A DNA stretch of 64,000 bases, taken from positions 7-64,006 of the forward strand of contig JAAYQZ010000032.1 in assembly GCA_012519025.1 (NCBI GenBank), in the 5' to 3' direction. Under the pieces are notes generated by a model. The model was not told the DNA's origin. It saw nothing but the letters and a program-made list of their open reading frames with translations, and ran no database searches. A program made the position numbers and the translations under genes. The first letter of the stretch is position 1. The number at the start of each line of letters is the position of its first letter. Shown piece by piece: positions 32,693-56,918 of this stretch. Source of the stretch: Bacillota bacterium. Lineage in GTDB: Bacteria > Bacillota > Limnochordia > DTU087.

Positions 32693-32806
32693 AGCCAGCA
32701 CGCCAGGTCGGCAGTTGCGTCTTGGTGCCAGAATTGAGCGAAAGTTGATTAAAAGAAGGAGCGCAAAACTCCAGGGAAGAATTATATATTGAGGAGGGTT
32801 AGTGTG

Positions 32807-41021: not shown

Positions 41022-41078
41022 AACATTGAGGTCGCAACATAAAAGCATGTGTTACTTAAACAGGAGGTGTACTGTAAA

Positions 41079-41588
41079 TTGGAGGAAACAGCCAGAAAGG
41101 TAGACGAAGAAAGGCAGTTAGTTGTCTTTAGTCTTTATGGTGAAGAATTCGGTTTGGAAATTACCAAAGTAAGAGAGATTGTCAAACCGCGGGAGATTAC
41201 CAAACTGCCCAATGTGGTGGATTTCGTCGAGGGAGTTACTAACTTGCGTGGTGAGGTTATACCGATAATTGATCTTAAGAAACGATTCGGTGTTCAGGCA
41301 ACGGAAATGACCGATGATTCCCGCATCATTAATGTTGATATAAGCAACAATCAAGTTGGTCTAGTTGTTGATGATGTGACTGAGGTTTTGCGGATCGCTC
41401 AAGGTGATATTGATCCACCACCCCGTACAATAGCAGGTTTGAAAGCCGAGTATATTCAGGGCATAGGCAAGATCGAAGAAAGGCTTTTGATCTTGTTGGA
41501 TGTGGACAAGATTCTAAGTTCTGAAGAGCAAATTGAACTGCAGGCAGAAGTATTGTCCGAGGAATTGGCCGGCACAGCCAACGCATAA
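41079..41588 (+). CDS. cheW: chemotaxis coupling protein CheW
   Basis: CheW-like domain: LVVFSLYGEEFGLEITKVREI, VTNLRGEVIPIIDL and GLVVDDVTEV. TTG 41079 lies 9 nt after GGAGGTG. Confidence 0.85.
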   Translation: MEETARKVDEERQLVVFSLYGEEFGLEITKVREIVKPREITKLPNVVDFVEGVTNLRGEVIPIIDLKKRFGVQATEMTDDSRIINVDISNNQVGLVVDDVTEVLRIAQGDIDPPPRTIAGLKAEYIQGIGKIEERLLILLDVDKILSSEEQIELQAEVLSEELAGTANA

Positions 41589-41644
41589 TGTAGTGCACCA
41601 ACCTTCGGCAGTTTGGCTTCCCAGACCCGGGGGTACATAAGGGG

Positions 41645-42637
41645 GTGGGGCAACTGGATGATATCCTCAGTCAGCAAGAAATCGATGAATTAATCAACCA
41701 GGTAGCAGGTCAAGTCCAGGAAGATGAAGTTTCGGATGAAGTGGCTGTTTACGATTTTAAACGGCCCCATAGATTTTCGAAGGAACGGGTGCGGGCTTTA
41801 CACAGAATCCATGAGCAGTTTGCCAGAGAGTTTTCCGGTATGATCTCAGCAAAGCTGCGTTCAAGGGTAGAGCTTACTGTACAATCCATAGAACAGCTCA
41901 CCTTTGGAGAATTTATCCGCTCAGTCCCCAACCCATCGGTAATTATTTTATCTGATATGCAGCCGTTGGAAGGCAGCCTGATCATGCAGCTCAGTCCGGA
42001 TATATCCTTTCTTTTGTATGATCGACTGTGCGGCGGACCGGGAATGGCCTTAGAACGGCCGCGGGAACTTACTGACATAGAGTTAGCCGTGTTGACCAAC
42101 CAATTATTTGAACCCATGGTTGACAATTTTGCAAACGCATGGTCGGACTTTATGGAGCTGACTGTTACTTTGCAGTCTATTGAAAGCAATCCCCAGTTTC
42201 TCCAGGTGATGCAGGAGCGGGAAACCGTCATATTGATTTCTTTGGCTTTGGGTGTTGGCAAGGCCCAGGATTTTGTCAATATTTGCATCAGTTATTCAGC
42301 TTTGGAGCCGGTGCTTAAAAAACTTACGTCCCTGAGCCTATTTGGGTCTTTGCGGCGGCGGCCCGGAACTGCAGACAGTCGCAACCTACAGGCCAAAGTC
42401 AAAGAGACTCCGATTACCGTCAACGTAGAACTGGGAACAACTGTTGTAACAGTGGCGGACCTGCTCAATCTGCAGGTAGGTGACGTAATCAGTCTTGATC
42501 GCAAACAGCACGAAAATTTGGAGGTGCATGTAGGGGATCTTGGGAAATTTTTGGCATCCCCGGGCAAACTCGGAGATAAATTAGGGATCGTGATCACGGC
42601 TGTGCGCTCCCAGGAAAGGAGCGAATTTGATGGATGA
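41645..42637 (+). CDS. fliM: flagellar motor switch protein FliM
   Basis: N-terminal LSQQEIDELI (CheY-P binding-type peptide), a middle CheC-like fold, and a C-terminal SpoA/FliN-like segment LNLQVGDVISLD. Confidence 0.9.
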   Translation: MGQLDDILSQQEIDELINQVAGQVQEDEVSDEVAVYDFKRPHRFSKERVRALHRIHEQFAREFSGMISAKLRSRVELTVQSIEQLTFGEFIRSVPNPSVIILSDMQPLEGSLIMQLSPDISFLLYDRLCGGPGMALERPRELTDIELAVLTNQLFEPMVDNFANAWSDFMELTVTLQSIESNPQFLQVMQERETVILISLALGVGKAQDFVNICISYSALEPVLKKLTSLSLFGSLRRRPGTADSRNLQAKVKETPITVNVELGTTVVTVADLLNLQVGDVISLDRKQHENLEVHVGDLGKFLASPGKLGDKLGIVITAVRSQERSEFDG

Positions 42638-43805
42638 GTTTCTAAGTCAAGAAGAAATTGATGCACTGCTTGGGGGCAATGATGACACTGCAGCCGATGA
42701 GGATGCGGGTCAAGATGAGCCTGATGGTGAGTTAGGAGAAGCAGAAGAACCCCACTTAACAGAGATGGAACAGGATGCATTGGCCGAAGCCGGCAATGTC
42801 TCCATGGGTGCGGCGGCAACGGCTCTTTCTACTTTGCTGAACCACAAGGTGTCAATTACTGTTCCCGAAGTGGTTATGACCAGCCGAAAAAGTGTACGGG
42901 AGCGTTATCCTATTCCGTGTGTAGTTATAAATGTTGAATATACTGAAGGGCTTGCCGGCAACAACCTGCTTGTTATGAAGGAATCAGACGCCGGAGTGAT
43001 TGCCAGTCTTATGCTAGGTGAAGATGGATCCAGCCCGCCGGAGTCCTTGACAGAGCTGCATGTCAGCGCGGTGAGCGAGGCCATGAATATGATGATGGGT
43101 TCTTCGGCAACTGCCATGAGCGATATGTTTGGCAGCCGTATAGATATATCTCCCCCTCGAGTGGAGCAGTTGGATTTGACAGAAGGCAGTGAACAGCTGC
43201 CTATTGCAGAACCCGTAGTGCAGGTGGCTTTTCGCATTCAAGTGGAGGACCTTTTGGATAGCGAAATGCTGCAGCTCATTGAACTGGATTTTGCTAAAGA
43301 CATGGTGCGCAGACTTATGGAAGCCATTGGATACAGTGATAGCGAGGATGCGGCACCGCCTGTGGAAGATGAGTTGGCCGAAGCCCCGGTTGAAACTTTT
43401 TCAGAAGATTTGGTAATGGGGCAAGAAGCAGCGGCAGTTTGGGAAGAGCCCCAGCCCGCGTCAGAATCCCCGGCACCAGAGCCTTTCTCGTGGAGAGACA
43501 TGGCACCTGAACCCGAAATAGGGGTAAGCCTGGGTGAGCTCGGCAATCTCAACATTGCCTTGATTCAAAACATCCCGGTTAGAGTTCGGGCTATTTTGGG
43601 GCGCAGCCGCCTGCCTATCGAGACAATATTGCGTTTGGGTCCCGGCTCCATCGTGGAGCTGGATACGTTAGACGGGGAGCCCATAGAAATATTAGCCAAT
43701 GACACTCTCATCGCAAAAGGTGAAGTTGTGGTGGTAGGGGAGCAGTTTGGTGTGCGCATTACAGAAATTGCGACACCCCAAGAACGCATTTCCTCTGTTC
43801 GGTAA
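42627..43805 (+). CDS. fliY: flagellar motor switch phosphatase FliY (CheC-like + FliN domains)
   Basis: LSQEEIDALLGG at the N-terminus. CheC-like EAGNVSMGAAATALS and SEAMNMMMGSSATAMS. C-terminal FliN segment IPVRVRAILGRSRLPIETILRLGPGSIVELD. Confidence 0.85.
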   Translation: MMDEFLSQEEIDALLGGNDDTAADEDAGQDEPDGELGEAEEPHLTEMEQDALAEAGNVSMGAAATALSTLLNHKVSITVPEVVMTSRKSVRERYPIPCVVINVEYTEGLAGNNLLVMKESDAGVIASLMLGEDGSSPPESLTELHVSAVSEAMNMMMGSSATAMSDMFGSRIDISPPRVEQLDLTEGSEQLPIAEPVVQVAFRIQVEDLLDSEMLQLIELDFAKDMVRRLMEAIGYSDSEDAAPPVEDELAEAPVETFSEDLVMGQEAAAVWEEPQPASESPAPEPFSWRDMAPEPEIGVSLGELGNLNIALIQNIPVRVRAILGRSRLPIETILRLGPGSIVELDTLDGEPIEILANDTLIAKGEVVVVGEQFGVRITEIATPQERISSVR

Positions 43806-43836
43806 TTTCATGGGGCCCCGAGGAGGCATCTGATTT

Positions 43837-45879
43837 ATGGATTTTTCGGAATACAAGGATGTTTTTGCTGCCGAAGCAAGGGAATATATACAATCTTTGA
43901 ATGAAAACTTGTTGGAGTTTGAACAAAACCCCCAGGACGCCCAGCTCATTGCAGAAATGTTTAGAGCAGCTCATTCTTTAAAGGGCATGGCCGGTACCAT
44001 GGGGTACAACAAACTGGCGGATTTAACGCATTACATGGAGAATTTACTCGATGCCCTCCGGGATGGCTTGCTTGGGGTCACTGAGGAACTAATTAATACG
44101 TTGTTTGCTTCAGTGGATATACTGGAGGTCATGCTCGATGAAGTGATTGCAACAGATGGGATTGTGACAGATACAACTCTCATTAAGGAGCAGCTGATCA
44201 GGATCCTTGATGAAGATGCTTCCAGCGAAACCCCTAAGTTGTCTCGGCCGATGGACCTACAGCAAGGTGCAGTGGAACTGCCTTTAAATGAATATGATCG
44301 AGAATTGATCAAAGAAGCTGTTGCTAAAGACTTTCGGCCATTTGCAGTGACCATCGTGCTCAGGGACGATGTTCTAATGAAATCAGTGCGGGCTTATACC
44401 GTGTTTCAAGCATTGGAACGATTGGGTACGATCGCAAAATCCGTCCCATCGGCGGAAGATCTCGATGAAGAGAGATTTGACGATAGATTCACGGTTTTGT
44501 TTTTCACTCATTATTCCCCTGAGGAAATTCGGGACGTTGCTTTGGGGGTCCCTGAAGTCATTGAAGCCGATGTTAATGACGTATCCTTAGAAAGAACAGG
44601 CCCTCTGCCTATTGGCGAACATACGGAGGGCGAAGAGGACAAGACCGCGAGAGTGGACGTGTCAAGTTTGGTTGCGGCCGCGGCCGGAAAGAGTGCGACT
44701 ACGGAACGAGCTGCAGAGCGGTTTGTACGGGTAGAAACCGAAAGACTTGATGAGCTCAACAACCTGGTAGGTGAATTAGTGATCAGCCGGACTCAAGTTG
44801 CCGAGGTGGCCAGACATTTAGATGGAACCCATGCTCGGGCAGCTGTAGCGCAATTGGATCGAGTCACGACAGAGCTTCAATACGCTGCAATGAAACTGAG
44901 GATGGTGCCAGTCAAACAGGTGTTTGATCGATTCCCCCGTATGGTGCGGGATTTGGCCAAAAATGCGGCTAAGACTATCAACCTGCAGGTGGTTGGAGAA
45001 GAAACCGAATTGGACCGCTCTTTGATGAACCAAATCGGCGATCCTTTAGTGCATTTAATCCGCAACTCTGTTGATCACGGTTTGGAGACAGCTGAAGTCC
45101 GGCGTGAACAGGGTAAAGCCCCCGCAGGCAACATTAGGTTGGAGGCAAGACATGAAGGCAGTCACGTTGTGATTGAAATCGCCGATGATGGGCGGGGTAT
45201 CGATCCGGACAAGATCAAACAAAAAGCCGTGGAAAACGGCATGATCACTGAAGAAGAAGCAGCCAAACTATCGGATTCAGAAGCTCAAGCCCTCATTTTC
45301 CAGGCGGGATTCAGTACCACCGAGGAGATTACTGATGTATCGGGTCGCGGAGTTGGTATGGACGCTGTGCGCGCGGCATTAGACAGCATGAACGGGTCTG
45401 TGGAGATTGAAAGTGAAGTTGGCAAAGGCACAACTGTTGCACTAAGACTTCCTTTGACTCTTGCCATCATTAGAGCGCTGCTGGTGCAGGCAGGTCGGGA
45501 AACGTGTGCTATCCCTATCCAGTCTGTGCGAGAAAATTTGAGAGTTGAACCTAAAGCTATAAAGACTATCCACGGGGAACGGGTTATCACCTTGCGCAAT
45601 GAGGTGCTGCCTATTCTCGATTTACCTCAACTACTGGGCTTTGAGGCTTCAAAACACCAAGGCGATTTGCCGATCATAGTGGTGGAGGGTGGCTCAGCTA
45701 AGGCCGGGCTGATTATCGATGAATTATTGGGTCAGCAAGAAGTTGTTATCAAATCTTTGAGCTCAATGTTAGGTGATATTCAAGGCGTGGCCGGGGCTAC
45801 CGTGTTGGGTGATGGAACAGTAGCTCTGATTCTTGACATTTCCGCGGTTTTACACGAACTATCCGCTGATCATAGATAA
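43837..45879 (+). CDS. cheA: chemotaxis histidine kinase CheA
   Basis: Hpt motif HSLKGMAGTMG, a dimerisation segment, HATPase motifs (HLIRNSVDHG, DDGRGID, GRGVGMD) and a C-terminal CheW-like domain. Confidence 0.95.
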   Translation: MDFSEYKDVFAAEAREYIQSLNENLLEFEQNPQDAQLIAEMFRAAHSLKGMAGTMGYNKLADLTHYMENLLDALRDGLLGVTEELINTLFASVDILEVMLDEVIATDGIVTDTTLIKEQLIRILDEDASSETPKLSRPMDLQQGAVELPLNEYDRELIKEAVAKDFRPFAVTIVLRDDVLMKSVRAYTVFQALERLGTIAKSVPSAEDLDEERFDDRFTVLFFTHYSPEEIRDVALGVPEVIEADVNDVSLERTGPLPIGEHTEGEEDKTARVDVSSLVAAAAGKSATTERAAERFVRVETERLDELNNLVGELVISRTQVAEVARHLDGTHARAAVAQLDRVTTELQYAAMKLRMVPVKQVFDRFPRMVRDLAKNAAKTINLQVVGEETELDRSLMNQIGDPLVHLIRNSVDHGLETAEVRREQGKAPAGNIRLEARHEGSHVVIEIADDGRGIDPDKIKQKAVENGMITEEEAAKLSDSEAQALIFQAGFSTTEEITDVSGRGVGMDAVRAALDSMNGSVEIESEVGKGTTVALRLPLTLAIIRALLVQAGRETCAIPIQSVRENLRVEPKAIKTIHGERVITLRNEVLPILDLPQLLGFEASKHQGDLPIIVVEGGSAKAGLIIDELLGQQEVVIKSLSSMLGDIQGVAGATVLGDGTVALILDISAVLHELSADHR

Positions 45880-45912
45880 TTCATGGTATAGTGACATAAC
45901 GGAGGGAAAGTA

Positions 45913-46275
45913 ATGGCAAAAAGAGTCTTGGTGACTGACGATACTGCGTTTATGCGCATGAGCTTAAAAAATGTATTGGAGAAAAATGGGTATGAGGTAG
46001 TGGGAGAAGCCGCTGATGGTGAGGAGTCTGTCGAGCTTTTCAAGGAGCTTAAACCCGATGTGGTGACCATGGATATTACCATGCCGAAAATGGATGGGAT
46101 TACCGCTATCAAAAAGATATTGGAAGTTGATCCCGATGCTAAGGTAATTGTCTGCAGTGCCATGGGACAAAAACCTATGGTTCTTGAAGCCCTCAATGCC
46201 GGTGCCAAAGATTTTTTGGTCAAGCCATTTCAACCGGAGCGAATTATTGAGGCTTTGCGCAAGATCGCAGGTTAG
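45913..46275 (+). CDS. cheY: chemotaxis response regulator CheY
   Basis: 120-aa receiver domain: VLVTDDTAFMR, DVVTMDITMPKMDG and KDFLVKPF. Confidence 0.9.
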   Translation: MAKRVLVTDDTAFMRMSLKNVLEKNGYEVVGEAADGEESVELFKELKPDVVTMDITMPKMDGITAIKKILEVDPDAKVIVCSAMGQKPMVLEALNAGAKDFLVKPFQPERIIEALRKIAG

Positions 46276-46292
46276 AAAACGGAGGCGAGCAT

Positions 46293-46910
46293 ATGGGTGA
46301 AGAAGTCAAGCCGACTCCCATGGAGATGGATCTGCTCAAGGAGTTGGGCAACATTGGTGCAGGTAATGCCACGGCAGCACTTTCCAGTATGCTCTACGAT
46401 CGCAAGCTGGATATGGTAGTTCCGGAAGTTGCTTTTATGAGCCTGCCGGAAAGTATTGATCTAATCGGAGGTCCCGAGGCTCCGGTGGCCGGAATTTATA
46501 TTGAGGTTTCCGGAGATGTTCGCGGCCATATGGCGTTTTTACTGCCAATTGACTGTGCACAAGGATTGGTGGAGCAGCTTTTGGGCCATGAATTTGTGGA
46601 GTTTGATGAAATGAGCTGTTCTGTTTTAGAAGAAGTAGGGAATGTGGTAATTACCTCTTACCTGAACGCTCTTTCCAGTATGACTGATCTTATGATCAAA
46701 CCTTCTGTGCCCGGTTTGGCAATAGACATGGCCGGTGCCATTTGGGCCTCTATTTTAGTCGGCGCCGAGCTTACAGATGATTATATTACAGTTATTAAGT
46801 CTGCATTTTCTTCGGAAGGAAGACAAATTGCCGGTCACATTATGCTGGTTCCCGGTGAAGGTGGCTTCCATAAGTTTTTTAATATATTGCTGGGGACGGG
46901 TAGTAGGTGA
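46293..46910 (+). CDS. cheC: CheY-P phosphatase CheC
   Basis: Two CheC motifs: ELGNIGAGNATAALS and EEVGNVVITSYLNALS. About 205 aa. The stop overlaps cheD. Confidence 0.8.
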   Translation: MGEEVKPTPMEMDLLKELGNIGAGNATAALSSMLYDRKLDMVVPEVAFMSLPESIDLIGGPEAPVAGIYIEVSGDVRGHMAFLLPIDCAQGLVEQLLGHEFVEFDEMSCSVLEEVGNVVITSYLNALSSMTDLMIKPSVPGLAIDMAGAIWASILVGAELTDDYITVIKSAFSSEGRQIAGHIMLVPGEGGFHKFFNILLGTGSR

Positions 46911-47389
46911 TGGCAGAAAAGTTTGTCAATATGAGTGAGTTGAAAGTTGCAAAAGGTGAAGAAGTTTTAGTAACAGTGGGTTTGGGTTCCTGTGTAGGAG
47001 TGGCCATTTACGACAAGGGGCGCGGCGTAGGGGGCCTGGCCCACGTGTTTTTGTCAGAAAGCAAAAATGAAACAGATGTAAAACAGCCGGGCAAGTTTGC
47101 CGATACCGCCATACCTGCCCTGATCAGCGCGGTCACAGCTTTAGGAGGACGCCGCAGCGTTTTGGAGGCCAAAATTGCCGGTGGAGCCAACTTGTTTCCA
47201 AAATTAGCCAACTCCACCCTCAACGTTGGCAAACAAAACGTTGCGGCAGTTAAAAAGCACCTGGCCAAACACGGCATTGTCCTTAAAGGAATGGCCGTGG
47301 AGGGCAACAAAGGGCGCAAGATGACCTTTTATCCAAAAAACGGTATGGTATTGGTCCAAAGTATTGGTGAAAAGCCGGAGGAGATCTAA
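46907..47389 (+). CDS. cheD: chemoreceptor glutamine deamidase CheD
   Basis: GLGSCVGVAIYD (catalytic Cys context), LAHVFL and AKIAGGANLF. Confidence 0.85.
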   Translation: MMAEKFVNMSELKVAKGEEVLVTVGLGSCVGVAIYDKGRGVGGLAHVFLSESKNETDVKQPGKFADTAIPALISAVTALGGRRSVLEAKIAGGANLFPKLANSTLNVGKQNVAAVKKHLAKHGIVLKGMAVEGNKGRKMTFYPKNGMVLVQSIGEKPEEI

Positions 47390-47424
47390 AAATGTCGGCT
47401 TAAAGTTCTTTGAGAGGTGAAAAT

Positions 47425-48552
47425 ATGGCCAAAGCCAGGGTATTGGTAGTAGATGACTCAGCTTTTATGCGCAAAGTCATATCAGATATGATCGCCACAG
47501 AAGATACTTTTGCAGTCATAGGCACTGCCCGGGACGGCCTCGATGCTTTAAATAAGATTGAAAAATTGCAGCCGGATATCATTACACTTGATGTTGAGAT
47601 GCCCCGCAAAGATGGTTTATCCACTTTACGGGAAATAATGGCTAAAAGACCGGTGCCGGTAATCATGTTAAGCAGTTTGACCCAAACCGGTGCTAAGGCC
47701 ACCATGGAGGCTTTGGCGTTGGGGGCGGTAGATTTTGTCGCCAAACCATCCGGTTCTATATCCTTGGACATTGCGGATATTCAAGATGAACTGATCCAAA
47801 AATTAAAAGCAGCGGTGGGAGCCAAGGTGCAAACCGCTCGAACTGCCCGACCCACTGCATTATCTCGGTGGCCGGCATCGAGTTCCACAACCCCAACAAA
47901 AACCCCCACCCCCATGTCTGTTCGGGCCGCAGCAGAGGTAAGTATACCCCCAAGGTTCCCTTTAGGGAAAAAATCTGCTTTGGCAAACACAGTGATTGTG
48001 ATTGGTTCTTCCACCGGTGGACCGCGGGCATTAGAAGAGGTACTGCGCCAATTTCCTAAGGATTTATCCGCCGGAGTACTGATCGTTCAGCACATGCCGG
48101 CCGGATTTACTAAATCTATGGCAGAGCGACTTGATCAAGTCGCGGCCCTAGAGGTAAGAGAAGCAGAGGATGGCGATGAAGTGAAGGCCGGGGCTGTGTA
48201 TATAGCGCCGGGCGGCTACCATATGACTGTGTCTAAAGAGCGCATAATCAAATTAGACAAAGGTCCGCAAGTCAATTATGTGCGGCCATCTATTGATGTA
48301 ACCATGTTGAAATTACCTGAGGTATATGGAAACAGGCTTGTAGGTGTGATTTTAACGGGTATGGGGAAAGACGGTGCGGAGGGCATGGCAAAGATCAAAC
48401 AAGCAGGCGGTGTTACAATAGTACAAGACGAATACACGTCAACCATATACAGTATGCCAAGAGCGGTTGTGGAAACCGGTAATGCCGATTTTATCCTGCC
48501 CATCGGCCGTGTGGGTGATGCAGCTGTGCGGGCAGCAAGAAAACTAGAGTAA
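47425..48552 (+). CDS. cheB: protein-glutamate methylesterase/deamidase CheB
   Basis: Receiver domain (VLVVDDSAFMR, DIITLDVEMPRKDG), a Pro/Thr-rich linker, then the esterase domain (IGSSTGGPRAL, VQHMPAGFT, LTGMGKDGAEG). Confidence 0.9.
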   Translation: MAKARVLVVDDSAFMRKVISDMIATEDTFAVIGTARDGLDALNKIEKLQPDIITLDVEMPRKDGLSTLREIMAKRPVPVIMLSSLTQTGAKATMEALALGAVDFVAKPSGSISLDIADIQDELIQKLKAAVGAKVQTARTARPTALSRWPASSSTTPTKTPTPMSVRAAAEVSIPPRFPLGKKSALANTVIVIGSSTGGPRALEEVLRQFPKDLSAGVLIVQHMPAGFTKSMAERLDQVAALEVREAEDGDEVKAGAVYIAPGGYHMTVSKERIIKLDKGPQVNYVRPSIDVTMLKLPEVYGNRLVGVILTGMGKDGAEGMAKIKQAGGVTIVQDEYTSTIYSMPRAVVETGNADFILPIGRVGDAAVRAARKLE

Positions 48553-48565
48553 AGGTAGGTAGCCA

Positions 48566-49354
48566 ATGAGTGTTATTTTGACTGATGGGGATTACAAAAT
48601 TTTGAAGCAAAGCCTAAAAACTACCATTGGCTTGGATCTAAGCCAGTATAAACAACAGCAAATGCAGCGGCGAATCAGGCAGTGGTTGGATCGCACCGGA
48701 GTTAAGACATATAAAGAATATCTTAAAATACTGGAATCCAGTGAAGAGGAACGGCTGAAATTTACCGAATACCTGACGATCAATACATCCCAGTTTTATC
48801 GGGATGTTTCAGTGTTTAAGGAAATCGAGGAAAAAGTGCTGCCGGATCTGCTTCAGCGTTTCCGCAGGTTGAAAATTTGGAGTGCGGGAGCGTCCATAGG
48901 TGCCGAAATATATACTGTGGCCATGATCCTGCAAGAACTCAGCCCCAACACCGCCCATACGCTTTTAGGCACAGATTTTGATCAAAGTGCTTTGGTGAAA
49001 GCTGGAGCGGGGGTATATGGGGAGAACCTTTTGAACAGCCTGCCCAGTTTATATAAGAATAAATACTTTACCCAAGAAAACGGGTCTTTTAAAATCGATG
49101 CCGGCATCAAAGGCAAAGTTAGACTTAAAAGACACAACCTTTTGGAAGATTCCTATGAAAAAGGTTTTCATATGATTTTGTGCCGCAATGTTTTTATCTA
49201 TTTCACACCAGAGACCCAGGCCCGTTTGACCAAACAGTTTAGTGAATCCCTGGTACCCGGCGGCATTTTTGTTGTCGGCAGTGCCGAAAATCTGATGGCC
49301 CCGGAAACAGCGGATCTGAAGCGGGTTTCGTACTGCATTTATCAAAAGGATTGA
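48566..49354 (+). CDS. cheR: chemotaxis protein methyltransferase CheR
   Basis: TINTSQFYRD, SAM-binding KIWSAGASIGAEIYTVAMIL and ILCRNVFIYF. Confidence 0.9.
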   Translation: MSVILTDGDYKILKQSLKTTIGLDLSQYKQQQMQRRIRQWLDRTGVKTYKEYLKILESSEEERLKFTEYLTINTSQFYRDVSVFKEIEEKVLPDLLQRFRRLKIWSAGASIGAEIYTVAMILQELSPNTAHTLLGTDFDQSALVKAGAGVYGENLLNSLPSLYKNKYFTQENGSFKIDAGIKGKVRLKRHNLLEDSYEKGFHMILCRNVFIYFTPETQARLTKQFSESLVPGGIFVVGSAENLMAPETADLKRVSYCIYQKD

Positions 49355-50339
49355 GCTGTAGTTTGCTGAGGACATTACCTAATGTATCAACTGCCAAAGA
49401 GTGGGGGAGCAAATCAAGTTCCCGGCGGGCTTTTTGGCAGTATTTGTTAAACACGATCTGTGATTTTTCAATTCCATTACTGGTTTTGACCAACTCATAG
49501 GCAGCATCCCAATCCTCGGGCGATATGTAAGGTTTCTTCAAAATAGAACGCAGTCCAGTGTGTGCAGCAGATTGCAAAGCATAAATTACCGGTAAGGTGA
49601 AATTGCCCTTCCGCATATCGCTGGAGGTGGGTTTTCCCAATTCAGACTCCTGACCAGTAAAATCTAAAATGTCATCTCGAATTTGAAAAGCCATACCCAA
49701 ATAGGATCCAAAACGTCTGAGTCTTGCGACCACACTCTGTCCGGCCCCCGATTCCACTGCACCCAATGATGCACTAATGGCAAACAGTGCGGCTGTTTTG
49801 CCTTTAATTTTCCGCAGGTACTGCCGTATAGAAAGATCGACATTGTAGCGTTCAGAGTGCTGACATACTTCCGACTCACAGACAATTTTAAGGGCTCTTG
49901 CCAATTTTGCCAGGTGATCAACGCTTTTGCAGTCAGCTAACAAAAGTATACTGCGGGTAAACAAATAGTCCCCAGTATAAACGGCAACATCTTTACCAAA
50001 GCGTTCGTGGACAGCCGGCTGCCCTCTCCGATAGCGGGATTCGTCAATAATATCATCATGAATCAGTGTAGCCATATGCAGGATCTCCACGGCAGCTGCA
50101 ATATTCCGGATATTTCCAGAGGACTTAGGACCAAATGTAGAGGCAAGCAAGACTAACGCCGGTCTCAGCCTTTTTCCGCCTGCCGAGGCCAACTGGATGC
50201 CGGCTTGGGTCAGCGTATTCTCCCGGGATTTGACATGGTCAAAAATTATCTCTTCCACTTTTTCCAATTGGACCTGGAGTTCAAGGTTATCTTGCCAAAA
50301 ATCCAGTGTCATGATATTTGCTAGCCTCAACTTTCCCAA
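49239..50339 (-). CDS. polyprenyl diphosphate synthase (HepT/DmkB-like, long-chain trans-IPPS)
   Basis: First DDxxD in LIHDDIIDES and second in FQIRDDILDF, plus KRLRPAL. The last ~38 codons overlap the cheR 3' end and do not look family-like. Confidence 0.85.
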   Translation of the reverse strand: MGKLRLANIMTLDFWQDNLELQVQLEKVEEIIFDHVKSRENTLTQAGIQLASAGGKRLRPALVLLASTFGPKSSGNIRNIAAAVEILHMATLIHDDIIDESRYRRGQPAVHERFGKDVAVYTGDYLFTRSILLLADCKSVDHLAKLARALKIVCESEVCQHSERYNVDLSIRQYLRKIKGKTAALFAISASLGAVESGAGQSVVARLRRFGSYLGMAFQIRDDILDFTGQESELGKPTSSDMRKGNFTLPVIYALQSAAHTGLRSILKKPYISPEDWDAAYELVKTSNGIEKSQIVFNKYCQKARRELDLLPHSLAVDTLGNVLSKLQLNPFDKCSTKPASDPLFPGPSDFRHCRQQKCRRVPGIH

Positions 50340-50351
50340 GGTTGTACCAAC

Positions 50352-50906
50352 TCAGTGATGATCATCGGCCACCGGGGTCAGACGGGATCTTTTCAGTGCA
50401 TTGACAGTTAGATCGCTGATCACACCGATGAAAAACCCGGTGACCAGTGCAGAAACAACCAAAATAGGAAAATAAACAAATATATTAAAAGTCTCAACTA
50501 CCAGCCCTGCCATGAGAATCTGACCCAGGTTGTGGCAAAACGCCCCGGCCACACTGATGGCAGGTGTACTGAATATGTGCCTGTACTTCAAGAGAGCGGA
50601 CATAATTAGGAAACTTAAAATACCGCCCGCGAGACTAAAAAGTACGCTGCTTGCGCCGCCACCCAGCAAAGCACCTAAAAAGCTCCGCAAAAGCAGGATC
50701 AGCCAGGCATCACCCCAAGGCAAAATACTAAGAGCAACCAATGTGATGATGTTGGCAAGGCCCAGTTTGACACCGGGTGCCAATTGCGGCACAGGCAGCA
50801 GCCGCTCTATGCCGTGCAGCATCAAAGCTTGGGAAACGAAGACACCAATCCAAGTAATGCGGCGTACAGATAATGGGGTCTTTTTTCTTCTAGAACGCAA
50901 TGCCAT
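50352..50906 (-). CDS. Gx transporter family membrane protein (heptaprenyl diphosphate synthase component I-like, PF07456-type)
   Basis: About 5 TM segments with the GVKLGLANIITLVAL motif typical of this family. Overlaps the upstream gene by 17 nt. Confidence 0.7.
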   Translation of the reverse strand: MALRSRRKKTPLSVRRITWIGVFVSQALMLHGIERLLPVPQLAPGVKLGLANIITLVALSILPWGDAWLILLLRSFLGALLGGGASSVLFSLAGGILSFLIMSALLKYRHIFSTPAISVAGAFCHNLGQILMAGLVVETFNIFVYFPILVVSALVTGFFIGVISDLTVNALKRSRLTPVADDHH

Positions 50907-51318
50907 CGATCTCCTCTACTTCATCTTGAGCAGGTAAAATATTGATTAAAAGGCGGTTCGGCAAACAAATGATTGATTGGTAAGGGAGCGAGATCCAGCC
51001 CTGCTTTACATCAATCTGATCAGGGCATGATGCCTCAATGACACGTATGCGTCCATTCTCCACTCTGATAGTGTTGTAGTGACCTCCACCCAATTCCACG
51101 GTGAATTCATATGGAGCTTTCACTTTTTTAAGATCAACTCTGTGCACTTCTTGACCATCTGATGTAACAACGGCCACGGAAGCAGCAGTTTTGTTGCCGC
51201 TGACTGTAATGGCGGTACCTAAGGCAAAAATTGCGATGAGAACGGTGTAGATGATCAGATCACCGGGTTTGAAGTAGCGATTTTGCCAATTTCTGTGGTA
51301 CTTATTCATAGAGTTCAA
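50890..51318 (-). CDS. NusG domain II-like (DUF1312) membrane-anchored protein
   Basis: N-terminal TM segment (LIIYTVLIAIFALGTAITV) followed by a ~100-aa beta domain with ENGRIRVIEASCPDQIDVKQGWI. The family is recalled from frequent pairing with ApbE and Gx genes. Confidence 0.6.
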   Translation of the reverse strand: MNSMNKYHRNWQNRYFKPGDLIIYTVLIAIFALGTAITVSGNKTAASVAVVTSDGQEVHRVDLKKVKAPYEFTVELGGGHYNTIRVENGRIRVIEASCPDQIDVKQGWISLPYQSIICLPNRLLINILPAQDEVEEIDGIAF

Positions 51319-52336
51319 ATCCTTCTGCTAAAGATAAGAGCCGACCTTTCAGACCACTTGTCACATAAACCAGTCTGTTGTCGCCAACCAAGATCCCCTC
51401 GACATTGTCCAGGTTTTCCAAAAGTTCAAGGCCCTTTTCCATACCTAATATAAATACCCCCGTTGCAAGAGCATCTGCAGCAGTGGAAGACGGAGACACA
51501 ATCGTCACGCTGGCTAAACCGCTTTCCGCAGGATAACCGCTTACGGGATCCAGGATATGATGGTATCGTATGCCGTCCTCAATAAAGTATCTCTCATAAG
51601 GGCCTGAGGTCACAATGGAGGTATCCTCAACCTCCAAAACCGCCATGTGGGTGCCTCTGGGGGCCTCGGGATTTTGAATACCGATGCGCCAAGGAGTTCC
51701 ATCGGGCTTTGCCCCCAGCACATACACATTGCCGCCTAGATTTAAAAAGGCGCTCTTTACTCCCTGATTCCTCAAAAACGCTGCTGCCGCATCTGCGCCA
51801 TAACCCTTGGCAATAGCCCCCAGATCAATTCCCATACCGGCGGCACCAAGCTTAACTTGTCTCTTTTCGACATCAAGCTGAATATCATGGTAGTTGATCA
51901 GCTGTTTTCTCTCTTCAACTGCTTCAGCGGAAGGTAGGCTTGCCCGAGGGGTGCCTATGGCCCACAGTTCCACTAAAGGCCCGATACTGGGTTCAAAAAG
52001 CCCCTGGGTAAGTGCTGCATATTCAATGCTTGCTTGAATGACGTGAAATGTGTCTTGATCAACTTTTACCCAGCTTTCCCCGGCACTTGCATTAATTGCA
52101 TAGATATAACTGTCGGGATGTGTGCGGCTCATGGCATGATCCACTTCCTCAATGCGTTTAAAAGCACCCCGCATTGCACTTTGGCTTCCGAAGACCCGCA
52201 TTTCAACCAATGTTCCCATCAGCCACTGGCTGTCGGAAACTGCAGTTGGTGTTCGGTCATTAGTCAAAAGGGCCCAAAGAACCGCGCTGAGCAATAATAT
52301 TATGATGCTTAACTTAAGAATCCGATCGAGTTTCAT
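51302..52336 (-). CDS. apbE: FAD:protein FMN transferase ApbE, membrane-anchored / extracytoplasmic
   Basis: ApbE blocks GIDLGAIAKGY, LNLGGNV, HHILDPVSGYP and ADALATG. The N-terminal hydrophobic anchor is KLSIIILLLSAVLWALL. ATG 52336 lies 8 nt after GAGG, whereas the ORF track begins at 52366. Confidence 0.85.
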   Translation of the reverse strand: MKLDRILKLSIIILLLSAVLWALLTNDRTPTAVSDSQWLMGTLVEMRVFGSQSAMRGAFKRIEEVDHAMSRTHPDSYIYAINASAGESWVKVDQDTFHVIQASIEYAALTQGLFEPSIGPLVELWAIGTPRASLPSAEAVEERKQLINYHDIQLDVEKRQVKLGAAGMGIDLGAIAKGYGADAAAAFLRNQGVKSAFLNLGGNVYVLGAKPDGTPWRIGIQNPEAPRGTHMAVLEVEDTSIVTSGPYERYFIEDGIRYHHILDPVSGYPAESGLASVTIVSPSSTAADALATGVFILGMEKGLELLENLDNVEGILVGDNRLVYVTSGLKGRLLSLAEGFELYE

Positions 52337-52435
52337 AGATCTCGCCTCTAGATAAAATAGATTCACTGCAAATACCCCAAAAGTATATCACACTTAGCAA
52401 ACTATTGGTGTCCGGCGGTAGTGAGGACTGCCGGG

Positions 52436-53314
52436 CTAGGTTAATAAGTCCAAAACAGTAAAAACCATGAGAATTGGACTGACGATCTCATTTACGTTGT
52501 AGGCTGCAATCTTTACCTGGCCTAAATTATCGGGTGTGACAATAACGTGCTCATACAGTAAAAGCCCAGCGACAATCAAAAGCCCGACAAGATAAACATT
52601 CCCAAGTGGTACAAACCAACGCAGCATGTAAAGCAGCACCACAGAGAAAATATGCATAGCGGAAGAAATTTTTAAAGCCTTGGGAATACCGAAGGCCGCC
52701 GGAATCGAAAAAAGTCCCGTCTTTCTGTCAAACTCCACATCTAAAGTGCCGTATATTACGTCAAAACCGGCGACCCAAAGTGCAACAGCTGCTCCCAAAA
52801 GGAGGGCCGCAATTCCAATGGTGTTGGTAATGGCGATCCAGGCACCGACAGGTGCGCCGGCCACAGCCGCACCTAAAACAAGGTGACAAAGCCAAGTAAA
52901 TCGCTTTGTGTAGGAATAGATGAAAAAAATCAACATCGGTATAGGCAACAGCACTACATAGATGGGGTCCAGCTTATATGCTGCCAAAACAAGCACAGCA
53001 AAACAAGCTAAAGTGAAAACGGCCGCTTCAAAATATTTTATCAGGCCTTGGGGCAGATGGCGATGGCAGGTGCGGGGGTTTAGGGCATCAATATCTCGAT
53101 CAATGATGCGGTTGAGGGCATTGGCACCGTTTCGAGCCCCTAATACAGCCGCACAGATCCAAAACAGGCGCCCAAGATCCGGCAGCCCTCCGGCAGCCAT
53201 AAACGCGCCTGTTACAGCAAATGGGAAAGCGAATAAAGTGTGCCTGAACATGACCATATCTCCAAGCTGTTGAACTTTAGTCCAAGCCGTAACTGGCCCA
53301 CTTTTGACTGACAA
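52436..53314 (-). CDS. UbiA-family aromatic prenyltransferase (MqnP/MenA/DmkA-like)
   Basis: NRIIDRDIDALNPRT (NxxxDxxxD) and a polytopic membrane profile. TTG 53314 lies 9 nt after GAGGAGG, inside the ubiD 3' end (38-nt overlap). That start gives a family-typical ~292-aa protein beginning ...KVQQLGDMVMFRHTLFAFPF. Confidence 0.85.
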   Translation of the reverse strand: MSVKSGPVTAWTKVQQLGDMVMFRHTLFAFPFAVTGAFMAAGGLPDLGRLFWICAAVLGARNGANALNRIIDRDIDALNPRTCHRHLPQGLIKYFEAAVFTLACFAVLVLAAYKLDPIYVVLLPIPMLIFFIYSYTKRFTWLCHLVLGAAVAGAPVGAWIAITNTIGIAALLLGAAVALWVAGFDVIYGTLDVEFDRKTGLFSIPAAFGIPKALKISSAMHIFSVVLLYMLRWFVPLGNVYLVGLLIVAGLLLYEHVIVTPDNLGQVKIAAYNVNEIVSPILMVFTVLDLLT

Positions 53315-54719
53315 GTTCCTTGACCTCCTCAGACATGATAATATCCTGGGGCCATATGCGGGGGTGTCCCTCTTCAGGCCACTTTTTAGTAGCATCTATA
53401 CCCAGTTTGTGACCGTAATGCCTGTGGGGCGAGGCGTGGTCTAAAGCATCCAAAGGGCCATCCACAATAGTCAAATCCCGGGCGGCATCAATATTATTAA
53501 ACACTTTCCACATGACGGTGGAAAGATCAGATGGGCTGATATCACCATCAACGACAATGATCATTTTAGTAAACATCATTTGCCCCATGCCCCAAACGGC
53601 GTGCATGACTTTTTTTGCATGGCCGGGGAAGCGTTTGTTGATGGAAATAATGGCACAATTGTGAAACACCCCTTCCAGGGGCAGGTTGATATCGACAATT
53701 TCAGGCATCTGCAGTTTCAAAATCGGCAAAAAGATTCGTTCTGTGGCTTTTGCCATATAGCAATCTTCCATGGGAGGTTTGCCTACTACAGTCGCCGGAT
53801 AAATAGGATCACGGCGCCGGGTAATGCAGGTCAGATGAAAAACAGGGTAATGGTCCTGGAGTGAATAGTAGCCGGTGTGATCTCCAAAAGGTCCCTCCAG
53901 GCGTTTTTCATCGAGATCGACGTAGCCTTCTAAAATGAATTCAGCCTGGGCCGGCACCTCCAGATCAGAAGTAATACATTGCACAGTTTCCACACCTTGT
54001 TTCCGCAAAAACCCCGCAAACAACAATTCATCAATTTCTTTAGGAAGTGGTGCTGTTGCCGCGTAAATGGTGGCAGGGTCAGCCCCCAAAGCGACAGCTA
54101 CAGGCATGGGTTTTTCCACTTCTTTGTATTTTAAATAATTCTCCCGACCGTCTTTGTGAATGTGCCAATGCATACCGGTGGTTTTGCTGTCATATACATG
54201 CATACGATACATGCCCATATTCTGTTGATTGGTGACAGGATCTTTTGTGATCACTATAGGAAGCGTGATAAAGCGTCCACCATCCTGCGGCCAGCATTTT
54301 AAGATGGGCAAAGTATCCAGGTTTGGCTCTGTTTCAACAATTTCCTGGCAGGGCGCATGTCTGACTCTCTTGGGAAAAACACCGGCCAGATCCAGCAAAC
54401 GGGGCACAGCCTTGATTTTATTTAACAAGCCTGCATATGACGATACATCCAAAAGTTCTTCAATCTCTTTGGCGATCTCGTCAAGGTCGTTTACTCCAAG
54501 GGCAGTGGCCATCCTTTGGTATGAGCCCATGGAATTGATTAAGACAGGATAATCGGATCCTTGCACATTTTCAAACAAAAGTGCCGGACCACCGGCTTTA
54601 CAAATGCGATCAGTGATCTCAGTTATTTCAAGTTCCGGGTTGACTGCTGTTTGAACACGCCTCAGCTCACCTTGACGCTCTAAAATCTCGATAAATTCAC
54701 GCAGATTCTTAAAGGTCAA
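53277..54719 (-). CDS. UbiD-family (prFMN-dependent) decarboxylase, menaquinone/ubiquinone-type
   Basis: The family-typical N-terminus (M)TFKNLREFIEILERQGEL follows TTG 54719, which lies 6 nt after GGGGAG. GGPALLFENV and EIDELLFAGFLR are also present. The ORF track extends to 54794. Confidence 0.85.
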   Translation of the reverse strand: MTFKNLREFIEILERQGELRRVQTAVNPELEITEITDRICKAGGPALLFENVQGSDYPVLINSMGSYQRMATALGVNDLDEIAKEIEELLDVSSYAGLLNKIKAVPRLLDLAGVFPKRVRHAPCQEIVETEPNLDTLPILKCWPQDGGRFITLPIVITKDPVTNQQNMGMYRMHVYDSKTTGMHWHIHKDGRENYLKYKEVEKPMPVAVALGADPATIYAATAPLPKEIDELLFAGFLRKQGVETVQCITSDLEVPAQAEFILEGYVDLDEKRLEGPFGDHTGYYSLQDHYPVFHLTCITRRRDPIYPATVVGKPPMEDCYMAKATERIFLPILKLQMPEIVDINLPLEGVFHNCAIISINKRFPGHAKKVMHAVWGMGQMMFTKMIIVVDGDISPSDLSTVMWKVFNNIDAARDLTIVDGPLDALDHASPHRHYGHKLGIDATKKWPEEGHPRIWPQDIIMSEEVKELVSQKWASYGLD

Positions 54720-54838
54720 CTCATGCTCCCCTTTCATACCCCGGCTGATGTGGGAAAACGGTACTGCTTCTTCGCACATTGTAGCACAGTTCACACAGTG
54801 TTACCATGGATTTAGCCAAGATAACACAATGTCCCGAC

Positions 54839-54998: not shown

Positions 54999-56918
54999 AT
55001 GAAACGTATAGTCATTTTAGGAGCGGGATATGGGGGTGTGGCCGCGGCCTTGCGGCTGCAGAAGCGGCTGCGTCGGTCCAGGGATATAGATATCATGCTG
55101 ATTGACCGCAACCATTTTCACACTTTACTTACAGAAGTACATGAGGTGGCCGGAAACCGGGTTAAGGAAGATGCTGTTGTAGTGCCTTTAGAGCGGATTT
55201 TTCAGTATACGAAAGTTAAAGTGGTTGTCGATGAAGTGAAAACAGTAGATTTCGAAAGCCACACTGTACAGGCCGTCGGGGGCGACTACCCGTATGACTA
55301 TCTTATTGTCAGTATGGGGGGCAAACCCGCATTTTACGGTATTGATGGCATAGAGGAACATGCATTGACTTTATGGTCCTATGATGATGCCCTTAAAGTT
55401 AAGGGGCATATTCGTTCCATGTTCCGCAAAGCGGCCCGGGAGAAAAATCCAGGTCGCCGCAGAGAGTTGTTGACTTTTGTTGTCGGAGGCGGGGGATTTA
55501 CCGGTATTGAACTAGTCGGTGAACTGGCCCGTTGGCGCCAGGAACTTTGCCTGGAATTTGGTATAAATCGAACCGATGTACGGCTTATGGTTGTAGAGGC
55601 CGCCGACAAGTGTTTGACAGACTTAGACGATGATCTGGTGGCTAAGGCAACTGGACATTTGGACAGATTGGGGGTAGAGGTGTGGACCAACTCGCCGATT
55701 TCCAAGGTCACTCCCACCTCCATCGAGATCAACGGTGAGCAAATTATTGTTAGTCACACCCTGATTTGGACCGGAGGATACGAAGCCGCAGTTTGTCCGG
55801 CGGGGCTCAATCTACCTACCGCCGGGAGAAACCGGATTGTGGTGAACGAATATCTGCAAACACAGGTGCCCAACGTTTATGCCGTTGGTGACAACAGTCA
55901 CTTTGTGGGGGAAGACGGTCAACCGCTGCCTGCTTTAGTGGAACCGGCCTTACAGGGTGGCCAAGCTGCAGCTGATAATATCTTAGCCGAGCTGAGAGGC
56001 AAAGACAAAAAGCCTTATATTCCAAAACTGCATGGTGCTATGGTATCCGTGGGACGAGGTTATGGTGTGGCACATCTATTGGGCATAAGGCTCCATGGTG
56101 TGCTGGCTGTGTTTATGAAGCATCTGGTGAATTTGCACTACCTGTTCAACATCGGAGGATTTGAGCTTGCCTTCCGCTACCTTGCCCATGAATTTAAAGA
56201 TCAAAAGACCCGGGATTGGCATATTCTCAAACACCTTTGGGCAGAGTCACAGCTGTTTTGGTTGGTGCCACTGCGGCTGTATCTGGGATATATGTGGCTT
56301 AGATCCGGGATAGACAAGGTCAACTCAGGGTGGTTGAAAGAGATATTTATCAGTGGTGCAGCCAACGGAACCAGTGCTGCAACCGCGGGGGCTGCCAACG
56401 GTGCTTTAGATATATTGGAAACTGTAGGAACAACTGGGGCCTCTTTGGCAACTGCCGCAACAGAAACACTAAATTCAGCAGCAGCGTTGGTATCCGGTGC
56501 CGCGGAAATAGCGGCCACCACCGGAGCCACCCTTGGCGCTGATGGTACAAGTGGAGCAACAGTGATGCACCTTATAAGTGACCATACACCTAAGTGGTAC
56601 GCGTGGATTATAGAACATATAGTTGTGCCCAATGCCATGGTATTTCAGTATCTGGTTGTTTTTACTGAAATCCTTTTGGGGGCAGCCTTTATCTTAGGGT
56701 TGTTTACTTTCCTGGCCGCGGCAATATCAGTGGGGATGAATATTAATTTCCTTTTGTCTACTGGTCTACATGATTATTGGTTTTTGGCAGCATCAATCGC
56801 CATGATGGCAGGGGCTGGGCGTGCATTTGGATTGGACTACTATCTATATCCCTATCTGATGAGACAGTGGCGGTATATTGCACGCAATTGGCGTCCGAAG
56901 ATATTCCTTTTTAGGTAA
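54999..56918 (+). CDS. type II NADH dehydrogenase (NDH-2) fused to a C-terminal DoxX-like 4-TM domain with an Ala/Gly/Thr-rich inserted loop
   Basis: NDH-2 motifs IVILGAGYGGVAAA, VVGGGGFTGIELVGEL and VYAVGDN in aa 1-~400. A TM helix (FWLVPLRLYLGYMWL) follows, then a ~75-aa low-complexity loop, then three more TM helices and a basic C-terminus (RQWRYIARNWRPK). Confidence 0.85.
   Translation: MKRIVILGAGYGGVAAALRLQKRLRRSRDIDIMLIDRNHFHTLLTEVHEVAGNRVKEDAVVVPLERIFQYTKVKVVVDEVKTVDFESHTVQAVGGDYPYDYLIVSMGGKPAFYGIDGIEEHALTLWSYDDALKVKGHIRSMFRKAAREKNPGRRRELLTFVVGGGGFTGIELVGELARWRQELCLEFGINRTDVRLMVVEAADKCLTDLDDDLVAKATGHLDRLGVEVWTNSPISKVTPTSIEINGEQIIVSHTLIWTGGYEAAVCPAGLNLPTAGRNRIVVNEYLQTQVPNVYAVGDNSHFVGEDGQPLPALVEPALQGGQAAADNILAELRGKDKKPYIPKLHGAMVSVGRGYGVAHLLGIRLHGVLAVFMKHLVNLHYLFNIGGFELAFRYLAHEFKDQKTRDWHILKHLWAESQLFWLVPLRLYLGYMWLRSGIDKVNSGWLKEIFISGAANGTSAATAGAANGALDILETVGTTGASLATAATETLNSAAALVSGAAEIAATTGATLGADGTSGATVMHLISDHTPKWYAWIIEHIVVPNAMVFQYLVVFTEILLGAAFILGLFTFLAAAISVGMNINFLLSTGLHDYWFLAASIAMMAGAGRAFGLDYYLYPYLMRQWRYIARNWRPKIFLFR

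Follow-up and report, generated by a model that had tools for sequence, protein, structure and literature searches.

The Bacillota bacterium contig JAAYQZ010000032.1 (assembly GCA_012519025.1) was analyzed over a stretch of 64,000 nucleotides, referred to here as the window. The window encodes Ndh2, a 639-residue protein in which an NDH-2 flavoenzyme is fused to a four-helix DoxX-like membrane domain. The loop between the first and second transmembrane helices (TM1 and TM2) of this domain carries the sequence DGTSGAT, a canonical form of the motif at which ApbE enzymes attach flavin mononucleotide (FMN) to their substrates. The motif is conserved among homologous fusions far beyond what loop composition would produce, and an apbE gene is a frequent neighbor of ndh2. 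An original prediction, made from the letters of the window, had proposed an ApbE-type acceptor motif on an outward-facing loop of the fusion, served by the ApbE enzyme encoded nearby. This core reading is partly supported by the analysis reported here, and flavinylation of the loop in vivo by ApbE appears rather probable.

The Ndh2 loop and conservation of its motif

The domain architecture of Ndh2 is consistent across Pfam, solved NDH-2 structures, and the helices modeled by AlphaFold2 (AF2). Residues 3-393 are matched by the solved structures 4nwz, 5na1, and 9pxk (E 4e-73), and Pyr_redox_2 covers residues 3-319 (E 1e-34). Residues 537-620 are matched by DoxD (PF04173; E 3.6e-8, 34.0 bits versus a gathering threshold of 22.7), and DoxX (PF07681) scores slightly under its own threshold (22.7 versus 23.6). 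The features of the gene are as follows, with amino acid (aa) positions counted along the protein.

54999..56918, +, ndh2, FLEET-type NADH dehydrogenase, 639 aa (open reading frame (ORF); Pfam Pyr_redox_2 and DoxD; Listeria Ndh2 homology)
54999..56198, +, NDH-2 catalytic domain, cytoplasmic, aa 1-400 (solved NDH-2 structures)
56247..56309, +, TM1 of the DoxX-like domain, aa 417-437, running from inside to outside (hydropathy; AF2 helix at aa 403-442; flank rich in Lys/Arg)
56310..56603, +, TM1-TM2 loop, aa 438-535, predicted to be extracytoplasmic (Lys/Arg density in the family; low AF2 confidence)
56364..56384, +, NGTSAAT, aa 456-462, with Asn replacing Asp (sequence; aligned by MAFFT with the motif of the homologues)
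56424..56444, +, VGTTGAS, aa 476-482, without Asp, inside a lineage-specific expansion (sequence)
56511..56531, +, AATTGAT, aa 505-511, without Asp (sequence)
56541..56561, +, DGTSGAT, aa 515-521, canonical ApbE motif (sequence; spacing to HTPxWY)
56634..56816, +, TM2-TM4 of the DoxD/DoxX-like domain, aa 546-606 (Pfam DoxD; AF2 helices)
56823..56915, +, basic C-terminal tail, aa 609-639, with seven Lys/Arg, probably cytoplasmic (sequence; Lys/Arg analysis)

Ndh2 of Listeria monocytogenes aligns with the window protein at 38% identity over 643 columns (BLASTP, E 2e-120), covering residues 4-625. The window protein thus combines an NDH-2 domain, a DoxD/DoxX-like transmembrane extension that is absent from housekeeping NDH-2, and full-length homology to the Listeria enzyme, the features of an Ndh2 of flavin-based extracellular electron transfer (FLEET). 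The pairing of Pyr_redox_2 with DoxD or with DoxX is recorded for the Ndh2 proteins of extracellular electron transfer (EET) in Supplementary file 1 of Meheust 2021, with examples from Lactiplantibacillus pentosus, Streptococcus marimammalium, Niameybacter, and Sediminispirochaeta, and the same study defined the EET system through an NDH-2 with a transmembrane helix within a flavinylation-associated cluster. Because of the Listeria homology, the shared neighboring genes, and these Pfam pairs, the fusion is, judged by its sequence, the known Ndh2 of the Gram-positive FLEET/EET locus, and its architecture had already been described.

The loop contains an Ala/Gly/Thr/Ser-rich insertion at residues 451-524 (nt 56349-56570), in which Asp is missing from three of the four motif copies. 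DGTSGAT, lying within GADGTSGATV (residues 513-522), fits the motif D-x-x-[S/T]-G-A-[S/T] in full, with the caveat that the motif is relaxed in most homologues, where Ser or Ala replaces the Gly. Its final residue, Thr521 (codon 56559-56561), is the predicted FMN acceptor. Shuffling the residues of the window's own loop gives a strict D[AG]x[ST]GA[ST] match with p of about 0.001 and at least three [ST]GA[ST] strings with p = 0.00025 (0.025% of trials). The D..[ST][GS]A[ST] string in the Ndh2 loop is the sole match among window ORFs of at least 60 aa in the six frames of the 64 kb. Tandem Repeats Finder detected no DNA-level repeat in the loop, and the motif copies are therefore not a recent duplication. 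The opposite strand of the loop-coding region entirely contains a 145-aa ORF (56201-56638, -) that is rich in Ala, Pro, and Val; it most likely reflects the biased composition and does not represent a gene.

The original prediction had correctly described both the 639-residue fusion with its four-helix domain and the insertion. It was not aware of a description of the flavinylated arrangement that it proposed, but the fusion itself is a known one. It had located three of the motif copies and omitted the fourth, NGTSAAT. Its range for DGTSGAT was exact, and those for VGTTGAS and AATTGAT spanned five of the seven codons, with six bases missing at the 5' end.

A search with the C-terminal domain as the query returned 33 relatives, nearly all of which carry, by eye, D-[AG]-x-[ST]-[GSA]-A-[ST] between TM1 and a conserved HTPxWY sequence. 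When 23 homologues are aligned with MAFFT, Asp is conserved to at least 90% at its motif position and Ala does not vary at its own. A profile search of 1.84 billion representatives gave 1830 matches at E <=1e-3 and 100 at E <=1e-30, and scanning one genome per species gave 264 confirmed relatives. The best 80 of these 264 were used as related loci; all are NDH-2 fusions, mostly from Clostridia, and their hosts include Thermotalea metallivorans, Geosporobacter ferrireducens, Acetivibrio, Ruminiclostridium, Defluviitalea, and Mahella. The window loop and 74 loops from the best 80 loci, 75 in total, were compared with a null model of within-loop residue shuffling. D..[ST][GSA]A[ST] was observed in 57 of the 75 against 0.2 expected (maximum of 4 in 2000 simulations) and D....A[ST] in 69 against 4.3 expected, although the loops share descent, so that these counts are not independent events. 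Loops may be as short as about 50 residues or exceed 130, and the surroundings of the motif cannot be aligned; the motif is kept nonetheless. When representatives clustered at 50% identity are included, giving 134 unique loops, D....A[ST] occurs in 115 of them, a loose pattern that also matches by chance, as in Listeria. Among the remaining 19 loops, 13 have a related string, usually with Glu or Gln in place of Asp, and 6 do not (two degraded remnants and four with nothing recognizable). As a negative control, three ordinary unfused DoxX proteins (P0023, P0024, P0031) do not contain the motif.

In short-loop members of the family, a single motif stands at a fixed distance from HTPxWY, as in DATTGAS-IMQLVSEHTP. 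The spacing in the window, DGTSGAT-VMHLISDHTP, is identical to that of the short-loop homologues P0001, L025, and L042, which carry DATTGAS or DGTSGAS, which marks the Asp-bearing site as ancestral and as the orthologue, by position, of the family site. The other window copies, on sequence comparison, sit in an expansion common to the closest relatives (L001, L002, P0034), where extra copies comparable to VGTTGAS are present. Tandem arrays of the motif occur elsewhere in the family, with about five copies in L003, four in P0051, and three in P0109, and such loops resemble multi-flavinylated proteins by analogy. Near-perfect arrays, such as VADAVASASTA repeated about five times and VVEAVSSASNA repeated four times, are found among L003, P0051, P0183, P0109, and P0064. 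L003 is a metagenome-assembled genome (MAG) of Limnochordia, the named members of the P0051 and P0183 group are Spirochaetia MAGs, and a search seeded with P0051 led to Spirochaetia. The corresponding loop position is occupied by WLQTAATSGAS in Listeria Ndh2 and by LQEQVTTGAS plus DAAATAAT in Enterococcus raffinosus Ndh2, and relatives within this subgroup have DATAGAS or DAASGAT there. Two MAGs each contain two paralogous Ndh2::DoxX genes (L003/L004 and L020/L032); one copy of each pair adjoins apbE/eetAB, and the loop motif is kept in both. One further sequence, P0022 (418 aa), from a 2-kb metagenome contig, joins a Toprim/topoisomerase-like N-terminus to the C-terminal region of Ndh2, probably as a chimera created by assembly or gene calling.

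The window apbE gene lies 2.7 kb from ndh2. Its product (ORF 51302-52366, -) matches Pfam ApbE at E 8e-93, shares 38% identity with Listeria FmnB (BLASTP, E 2e-77), and begins with a signal-anchor. Across the 80 related loci, apbE is found within 10 kb of ndh2 in 55, usually in the compact order dmkB-eetB-eetA-apbE adjoining ndh2. A homologue of the flavinylated lipoprotein PplA is present in 17 of the 80 loci and in 14 of the 55 with apbE, and 41 of those 55 contain neither a PplA homologue nor another ORF of at least 100 aa bearing D..[ST]GA[ST]. Ndh2 is thus the sole local candidate substrate in most apbE-containing loci, although divergent FMN_bind proteins, or genes elsewhere in the genome, may supply other substrates of ApbE. 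No anti-correlation was found in these loci between the presence of PplA and the Ndh2 motif, which is also kept where PplA occurs, so the motif is not simply a PplA substitute. The original prediction had proposed to test the conservation of the motif among fusions and its co-occurrence with apbE, and its core reading passes both tests; its emphasis on the Asp-bearing site and on the nearby membrane-anchored ApbE is upheld.

Topology of the loop and competing explanations

The NDH-2 domain must be cytoplasmic, to face NADH. In 67 homologues, Lys/Arg density falls from 0.223 over the 22 residues that precede TM1 to 0.054 in the loop and returns to 0.217 in the C-terminal tail. Residues 451-531 of the window protein contain no Lys or Arg, and the tail, of which RQWRYIARNWRPK forms residues 622-634, contains seven. 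This pattern supports a topology in which the N-terminus is inside, the loop outside, and the C-terminus inside, and the loop is accordingly predicted to face outward. The AF2 model of the window C-terminal domain, with a mean predicted local distance difference test (pLDDT) of 75, has TM1 as a long helix, followed by a loop of low confidence and then three more membrane helices, and pLDDT is below 50 at residues 511-513 and 515-519, the latter being the first five residues of the motif. In the model of the short-loop homologue P0001 (pLDDT 81.5, predicted template modeling score 0.71), the sole stretch with pLDDT below 50 is residues 43-51, NADATTGAS. The segment is strongly conserved yet disordered and exposed, and in this respect behaves like a modification tag. 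The seven residues of D-x-x-[S/T]-G-A-[S/T] are enough to act as a tag for ApbE, surface loops included (PMC12052999), and unstructured C-terminal extensions of FMN_red proteins are flavinylated (Huang et al. 2024).

Several observations weigh against flavinylation of the loop. At the position two before the acceptor, the family has Ser in 37%, Ala in 27%, and the canonical Gly in 27% of cases, and the acceptor itself is Ser in 66%, commoner than Thr. In Pfam, Ndh2 has no match to FMN_bind, NqrB/RnfD, DUF2271, DUF3570, Flavodoxin_4, or FMN_red, and no known flavin-binding fold surrounds the site. Proteomics of Listeria reportedly detected flavinylated PplA only; flavinylated Ndh2 could easily be missed by trypsin-based proteomics because the loop is free of Lys and Arg and its tryptic peptide would be about 60-85 aa long. 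A standalone DoxD-like protein of 219 aa (P0003; L083 8001-8660) has two DxxTSAS copies and is not fused to NDH-2; apbE is missing within 8 kb of it, and its neighbors are genes for helicase, TPR, and HD-domain proteins. For related EET Ndh2 proteins, TMHMM counts three helices, not four (Meheust 2021 table), which, taken literally, would place the loop inside. Thr is favored over Ser as the ApbE acceptor, with T-to-S lowering flavinylation, and G-to-A lowers flavinylation in tested substrates (PMC12052999). In the same source, Asp-to-Ala had a minor effect, and Gly-to-Ala and Ala-to-Val left about 50% flavinylation.

These points bear on different alternatives. An unlikely one holds that the conserved D-x-x-[ST]-[GSA]-A-[ST] is a functional element of the DoxX domain unrelated to ApbE, such as a place where EetA, PplA, or another partner docks, or a gate of the quinone site, and that its likeness to the ApbE motif is coincidental. 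The family preference for Ser or Ala over Gly and for Ser over Thr at the end, the retention of the motif in P0003 away from apbE, and the lack of a flavin-binding fold would all agree with such an element, whereas the variable copy number and spacing of the tandem arrays and the sole disordered stretch in P0001 suit a short tag. The conserved Asp, Ala, and terminal Ser/Thr are, moreover, the positions that define the ApbE motif, and apbE and the FAD (flavin adenine dinucleotide) exporter gene are conserved neighbors, often with no other substrate. It is quite improbable that the loop is flavinylated and the flavin lies off the main electron path, as an adventitious tag, an FMN store, or a means of recruiting FmnB, with electrons leaving through quinone shuttles or PplA-like proteins elsewhere. 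ApbE does modify any accessible seven-residue tag, a PplA homologue is kept in 14 of the 55 apbE-containing loci, and DHNA (1,4-dihydroxy-2-naphthoic acid) serves as a soluble shuttle in Lactiplantibacillus plantarum (PMC9888254). Against this, Clostridia, Bacilli, and Spirochaetia alike have conserved the site, and the ApbE and EetB genes are retained in loci without another substrate, both of which argue for a selected function.

A cytoplasmic loop, which would follow if TM1 did not span the membrane and which would put the motif out of reach of ApbE and give it a cytoplasmic role, is very improbable. TM1, in which FWLVPLRLYLGYMWL forms residues 420-434, is weakly hydrophobic and contains Arg426, and this weak hydrophobicity accounts for the three-helix TMHMM counts. 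A three-helix topology would, however, place the strongly basic C-terminal tail outside, the Lys/Arg density of the loop is four-fold below that of both flanks, and AF2 gives TM1 as a long helix followed by three more. The outward placement of the original prediction is favored by the Lys/Arg analysis, with the TMHMM counts as its caveat. Pure low-complexity drift of [ST]GA[ST] strings in an Ala/Gly/Ser/Thr-rich linker, a concern raised in the original prediction, might be suspected from the biased composition of the loop and the three window copies without Asp; it is contradicted by the composition-preserving shuffles, both across the family and for the strict window motif, and by the short, non-biased loops of P0001 and L025, in which one clean motif is retained. 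Compositional drift is rejected as the origin of the loop motif.

The FLEET-type locus and related systems

The genes around ndh2 on the reverse strand are listed below.

49239..50339, -, DmkB homologue, polyprenyl diphosphate synthase (Pfam; Listeria DmkB E 1e-67)
50352..50906, -, EetB homologue, Hpre_diP_synt_I / Gx transporter (Pfam; Listeria EetB E 2e-28)
50890..51318, -, EetA homologue, NusG domain II protein (Pfam NusG_II E 7e-33; Listeria EetA E 2e-14)
51302..52336 (ORF 51302-52366), -, apbE/fmnB, FAD:protein FMN transferase with the N-terminal signal-anchor MKLDRILKLSIIILLLSAVLWALL (Pfam; Listeria FmnB)
52436..54794, -, MqnP-like UbiA prenyltransferase (52436-53395) and MqnL-like UbiD decarboxylase (53277-54794) (NCBIfam)

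Homologues of fmnB, eetA, eetB, and dmkB thus cluster within 49239-52366, in an order that most of the 80 related loci repeat. PplA of Listeria or Enterococcus, and FmnA, had no BLASTP match among ORFs of at least 50 aa in the window, whose gene content is that of a FLEET-type locus without pplA and fmnA. A pair of MqnP/MqnL-like genes, of the late menaquinone synthesis of the futalosine route, is inserted between apbE and ndh2. The UbiD decarboxylase belongs to the menaquinone-biosynthesis family TIGR03701 (661 bits versus a cut-off of 496), and the UbiA protein is closest to MqnP models (E about 1e-85), with scores under their cut-offs. The UbiA/UbiD pair is found within 10 kb in 4 of the 80 related loci (L002, L062, L064, L067), and L001 has a cut UbiD alone. 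In Enterococcus, menA-type prenyltransferase genes occupy the corresponding position.

The Listeria and Enterococcus FLEET loci used for comparison were taken, by tblastn, from chromosome-sized records in a plasmid collection. These records are annotated with the genes of the canonical locus, namely fmnA, an FAD:protein FMN transferase, pplA, Ndh2 as a 628-aa 'FAD-dependent oxidoreductase', eetA, eetB, and a polyprenyl synthase, and the eetA and eetB positions in Enterococcus are annotated as 'NusG domain II-containing' and 'Gx transporter family'. Two records of the collection, NZ_LR134400.1 (L081) and NZ_CP030101.1, of 594 kb and 2.9 Mb, are labeled Listeria monocytogenes plasmids; both contain ribosomal protein genes and the chromosomal FLEET locus, and appear to be chromosome sequence filed as plasmid.

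Directly upstream of the FLEET genes, the window contains a chemotaxis gene cluster (41000-49400) with CheA at 43834-45879, surrounded by genes whose ORF translations resemble the CheW, CheY, CheB, and CheR types. Further away, at 22600-32700, two PduS-like proteins (Complex1_51K + Fer4 + RnfC_N; 25248-26636 and 30577-32064) are encoded near an aldehyde dehydrogenase (23796-25214), an acetate kinase (27000-28439), and an alpha-L-fucosidase (32753-34039). This region, about 25 kb from the FLEET genes, looks like a microcompartment-type locus of the fucose/propanediol style. In Listeria, microcompartment catabolism is reportedly linked to EET (PMC8547011).

The closest described system is the FLEET locus of Listeria monocytogenes, whose description with Ndh2 is reportedly due to Light et al. 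in 2018. Listeria Ndh2, whose counterpart goes by Ndh3 in Enterococcus faecalis and by Ndh2 in L. plantarum, likewise joins NDH-2 to a DoxD/DoxX-like transmembrane domain, has fmnB/apbE, eetA, eetB, and dmkB as neighbors, and has TSGAS in its loop. The window differs in lacking pplA and fmnA, in having MqnP/MqnL-type instead of MenA-type quinone genes, and in its expanded loop, which has four motif copies, including one that is fully canonical and has Asp. PplA is an extracytosolic carrier of covalent FMN from the same kind of locus and depends on the same FmnB/EetB machinery, but it is a soluble folded lipoprotein with two ApbE-flavinylated FMN_bind domains and VSGAT sites, whereas the window motif lies on a disordered loop of an integral membrane domain that has no FMN_bind domain. 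NqrB and RnfD are polytopic and carry phosphoester-bound FMN within an NADH- or ferredoxin-linked respiratory path, as is predicted for the window flavin; they belong to an unrelated fold and family and are subunits of multi-subunit ion pumps, unfused to a dehydrogenase. Modification of flexible segments by ApbE, sometimes with one or two copies, is known from the FMN_red extensions (Huang et al. 2024) and from the synthetic seven-residue Flavin-tag (Tong et al. 2021). In FMN_red, unlike Ndh2, the tethered flavin docks in a pre-existing flavin-binding site, and none is known in DoxX-like domains.

Ndh2 also shares with the DoxD/DoxX family, for instance the DoxD subunit of the Acidianus thiosulfate:quinone oxidoreductase, a DoxD match above the cut-off, and ordinary DoxX proteins (those of the negative control) differ from it in lacking both the loop motif and the fusion to NDH-2. 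Neither AF2 model had a significant match when its fold was searched against the PDB; the best non-significant ones, to VKOR (E 4.5) and to GGCX-menaquinone complexes (E 3.8, TM-score 0.46), serve as a lead only. The membrane domain of the HTTM/vitamin-K carboxylase proteins presumably belongs to the same Pfam clan as DoxD and DoxX. For one EET Ndh2 from a spirochaete, Supplementary file 1 of Meheust 2021 records a VKG_Carbox match. By analogy, the DoxD match, the non-significant GGCX similarity, and the VKG_Carbox match are compatible with a naphthoquinone-binding role, as a lead and not as a test.

Proposed mechanism and significance

In the mechanism proposed here, the NDH-2 domain would oxidize NADH in the cytoplasm and pass electrons through FAD to (demethyl)menaquinone, and the four-helix DoxD/DoxX-like domain would act as a quinol-interacting module, a role suggested by family membership and, as a lead, by the non-significant fold similarity to GGCX. 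The first outward loop would be a flexible acceptor for the membrane-anchored ApbE/FmnB, which would use FAD exported by the EetB system to join FMN to Thr521 through a phosphoester bond; the three degenerate copies upstream might be modified as well. Quinol would then reduce the tethered flavin or flavins at the outer side of the membrane, and from there the electrons would go to soluble flavins or external acceptors.

EetB and FmnA have been characterized as the S and T subunits, respectively, of an energy-coupling factor (ECF-S, ECF-T) FAD exporter that serves flavinylation (Rivera-Lugo 2023, PMC9973259), and EetA is dispensable for EET in Listeria (PMC9973259). In L. plantarum, iron reduction that depends on flavins requires Ndh2 and EetA/B, but not PplA, and an 'unknown oxidoreductase' has been invoked (PMC9888254). 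In E. faecalis, ferric reduction likewise requires EetB and dispenses with PplA, and the step from reduced demethylmenaquinone to Fe3+ has no assigned protein (PMC9864754). The L. plantarum, E. faecalis, and EetB phenotypes fit the idea of flavinylation on the Ndh2 loop. Ndh2 is not mentioned as a flavinylation substrate in Meheust 2021, Rivera-Lugo 2023, Tejedor-Sanz 2022, Tolar 2022, Hederstedt 2022, Huang et al. 2024, or the ApbE review PMC12052999, nor was such a mention found in full-text literature searches on Ndh2 flavinylation, which covered papers available without subscription.

A broader proposal, which we advance tentatively as possible though somewhat short of probable, is that FLEET Ndh2 itself is a substrate of ApbE/FmnB throughout Firmicutes and Spirochaetes, including enterococci and Listeria (candidate acceptor Ser493), and that the DoxX-like domain with its flavinylated loop is the missing menaquinol:flavin oxidoreductase of Gram-positive EET. 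The FLEET pathway occurs in Listeria, enterococci, lactobacilli, and many Clostridia of gut and sediment, and no protein in it has been assigned to carry electrons from reduced demethylmenaquinone to the outside; the Ndh2 loop is a candidate for this exit point. If flavinylated, Ndh2 would represent a new class of ApbE substrate, with the tag on a polytopic DoxX-like domain, and a single polypeptide would link cytoplasmic NADH, through quinone, to an extracellular covalent flavin. This would explain iron reduction that is independent of PplA and dependent on EetB, as well as the retention of apbE and the FAD exporter gene without PplA in many Clostridial loci.

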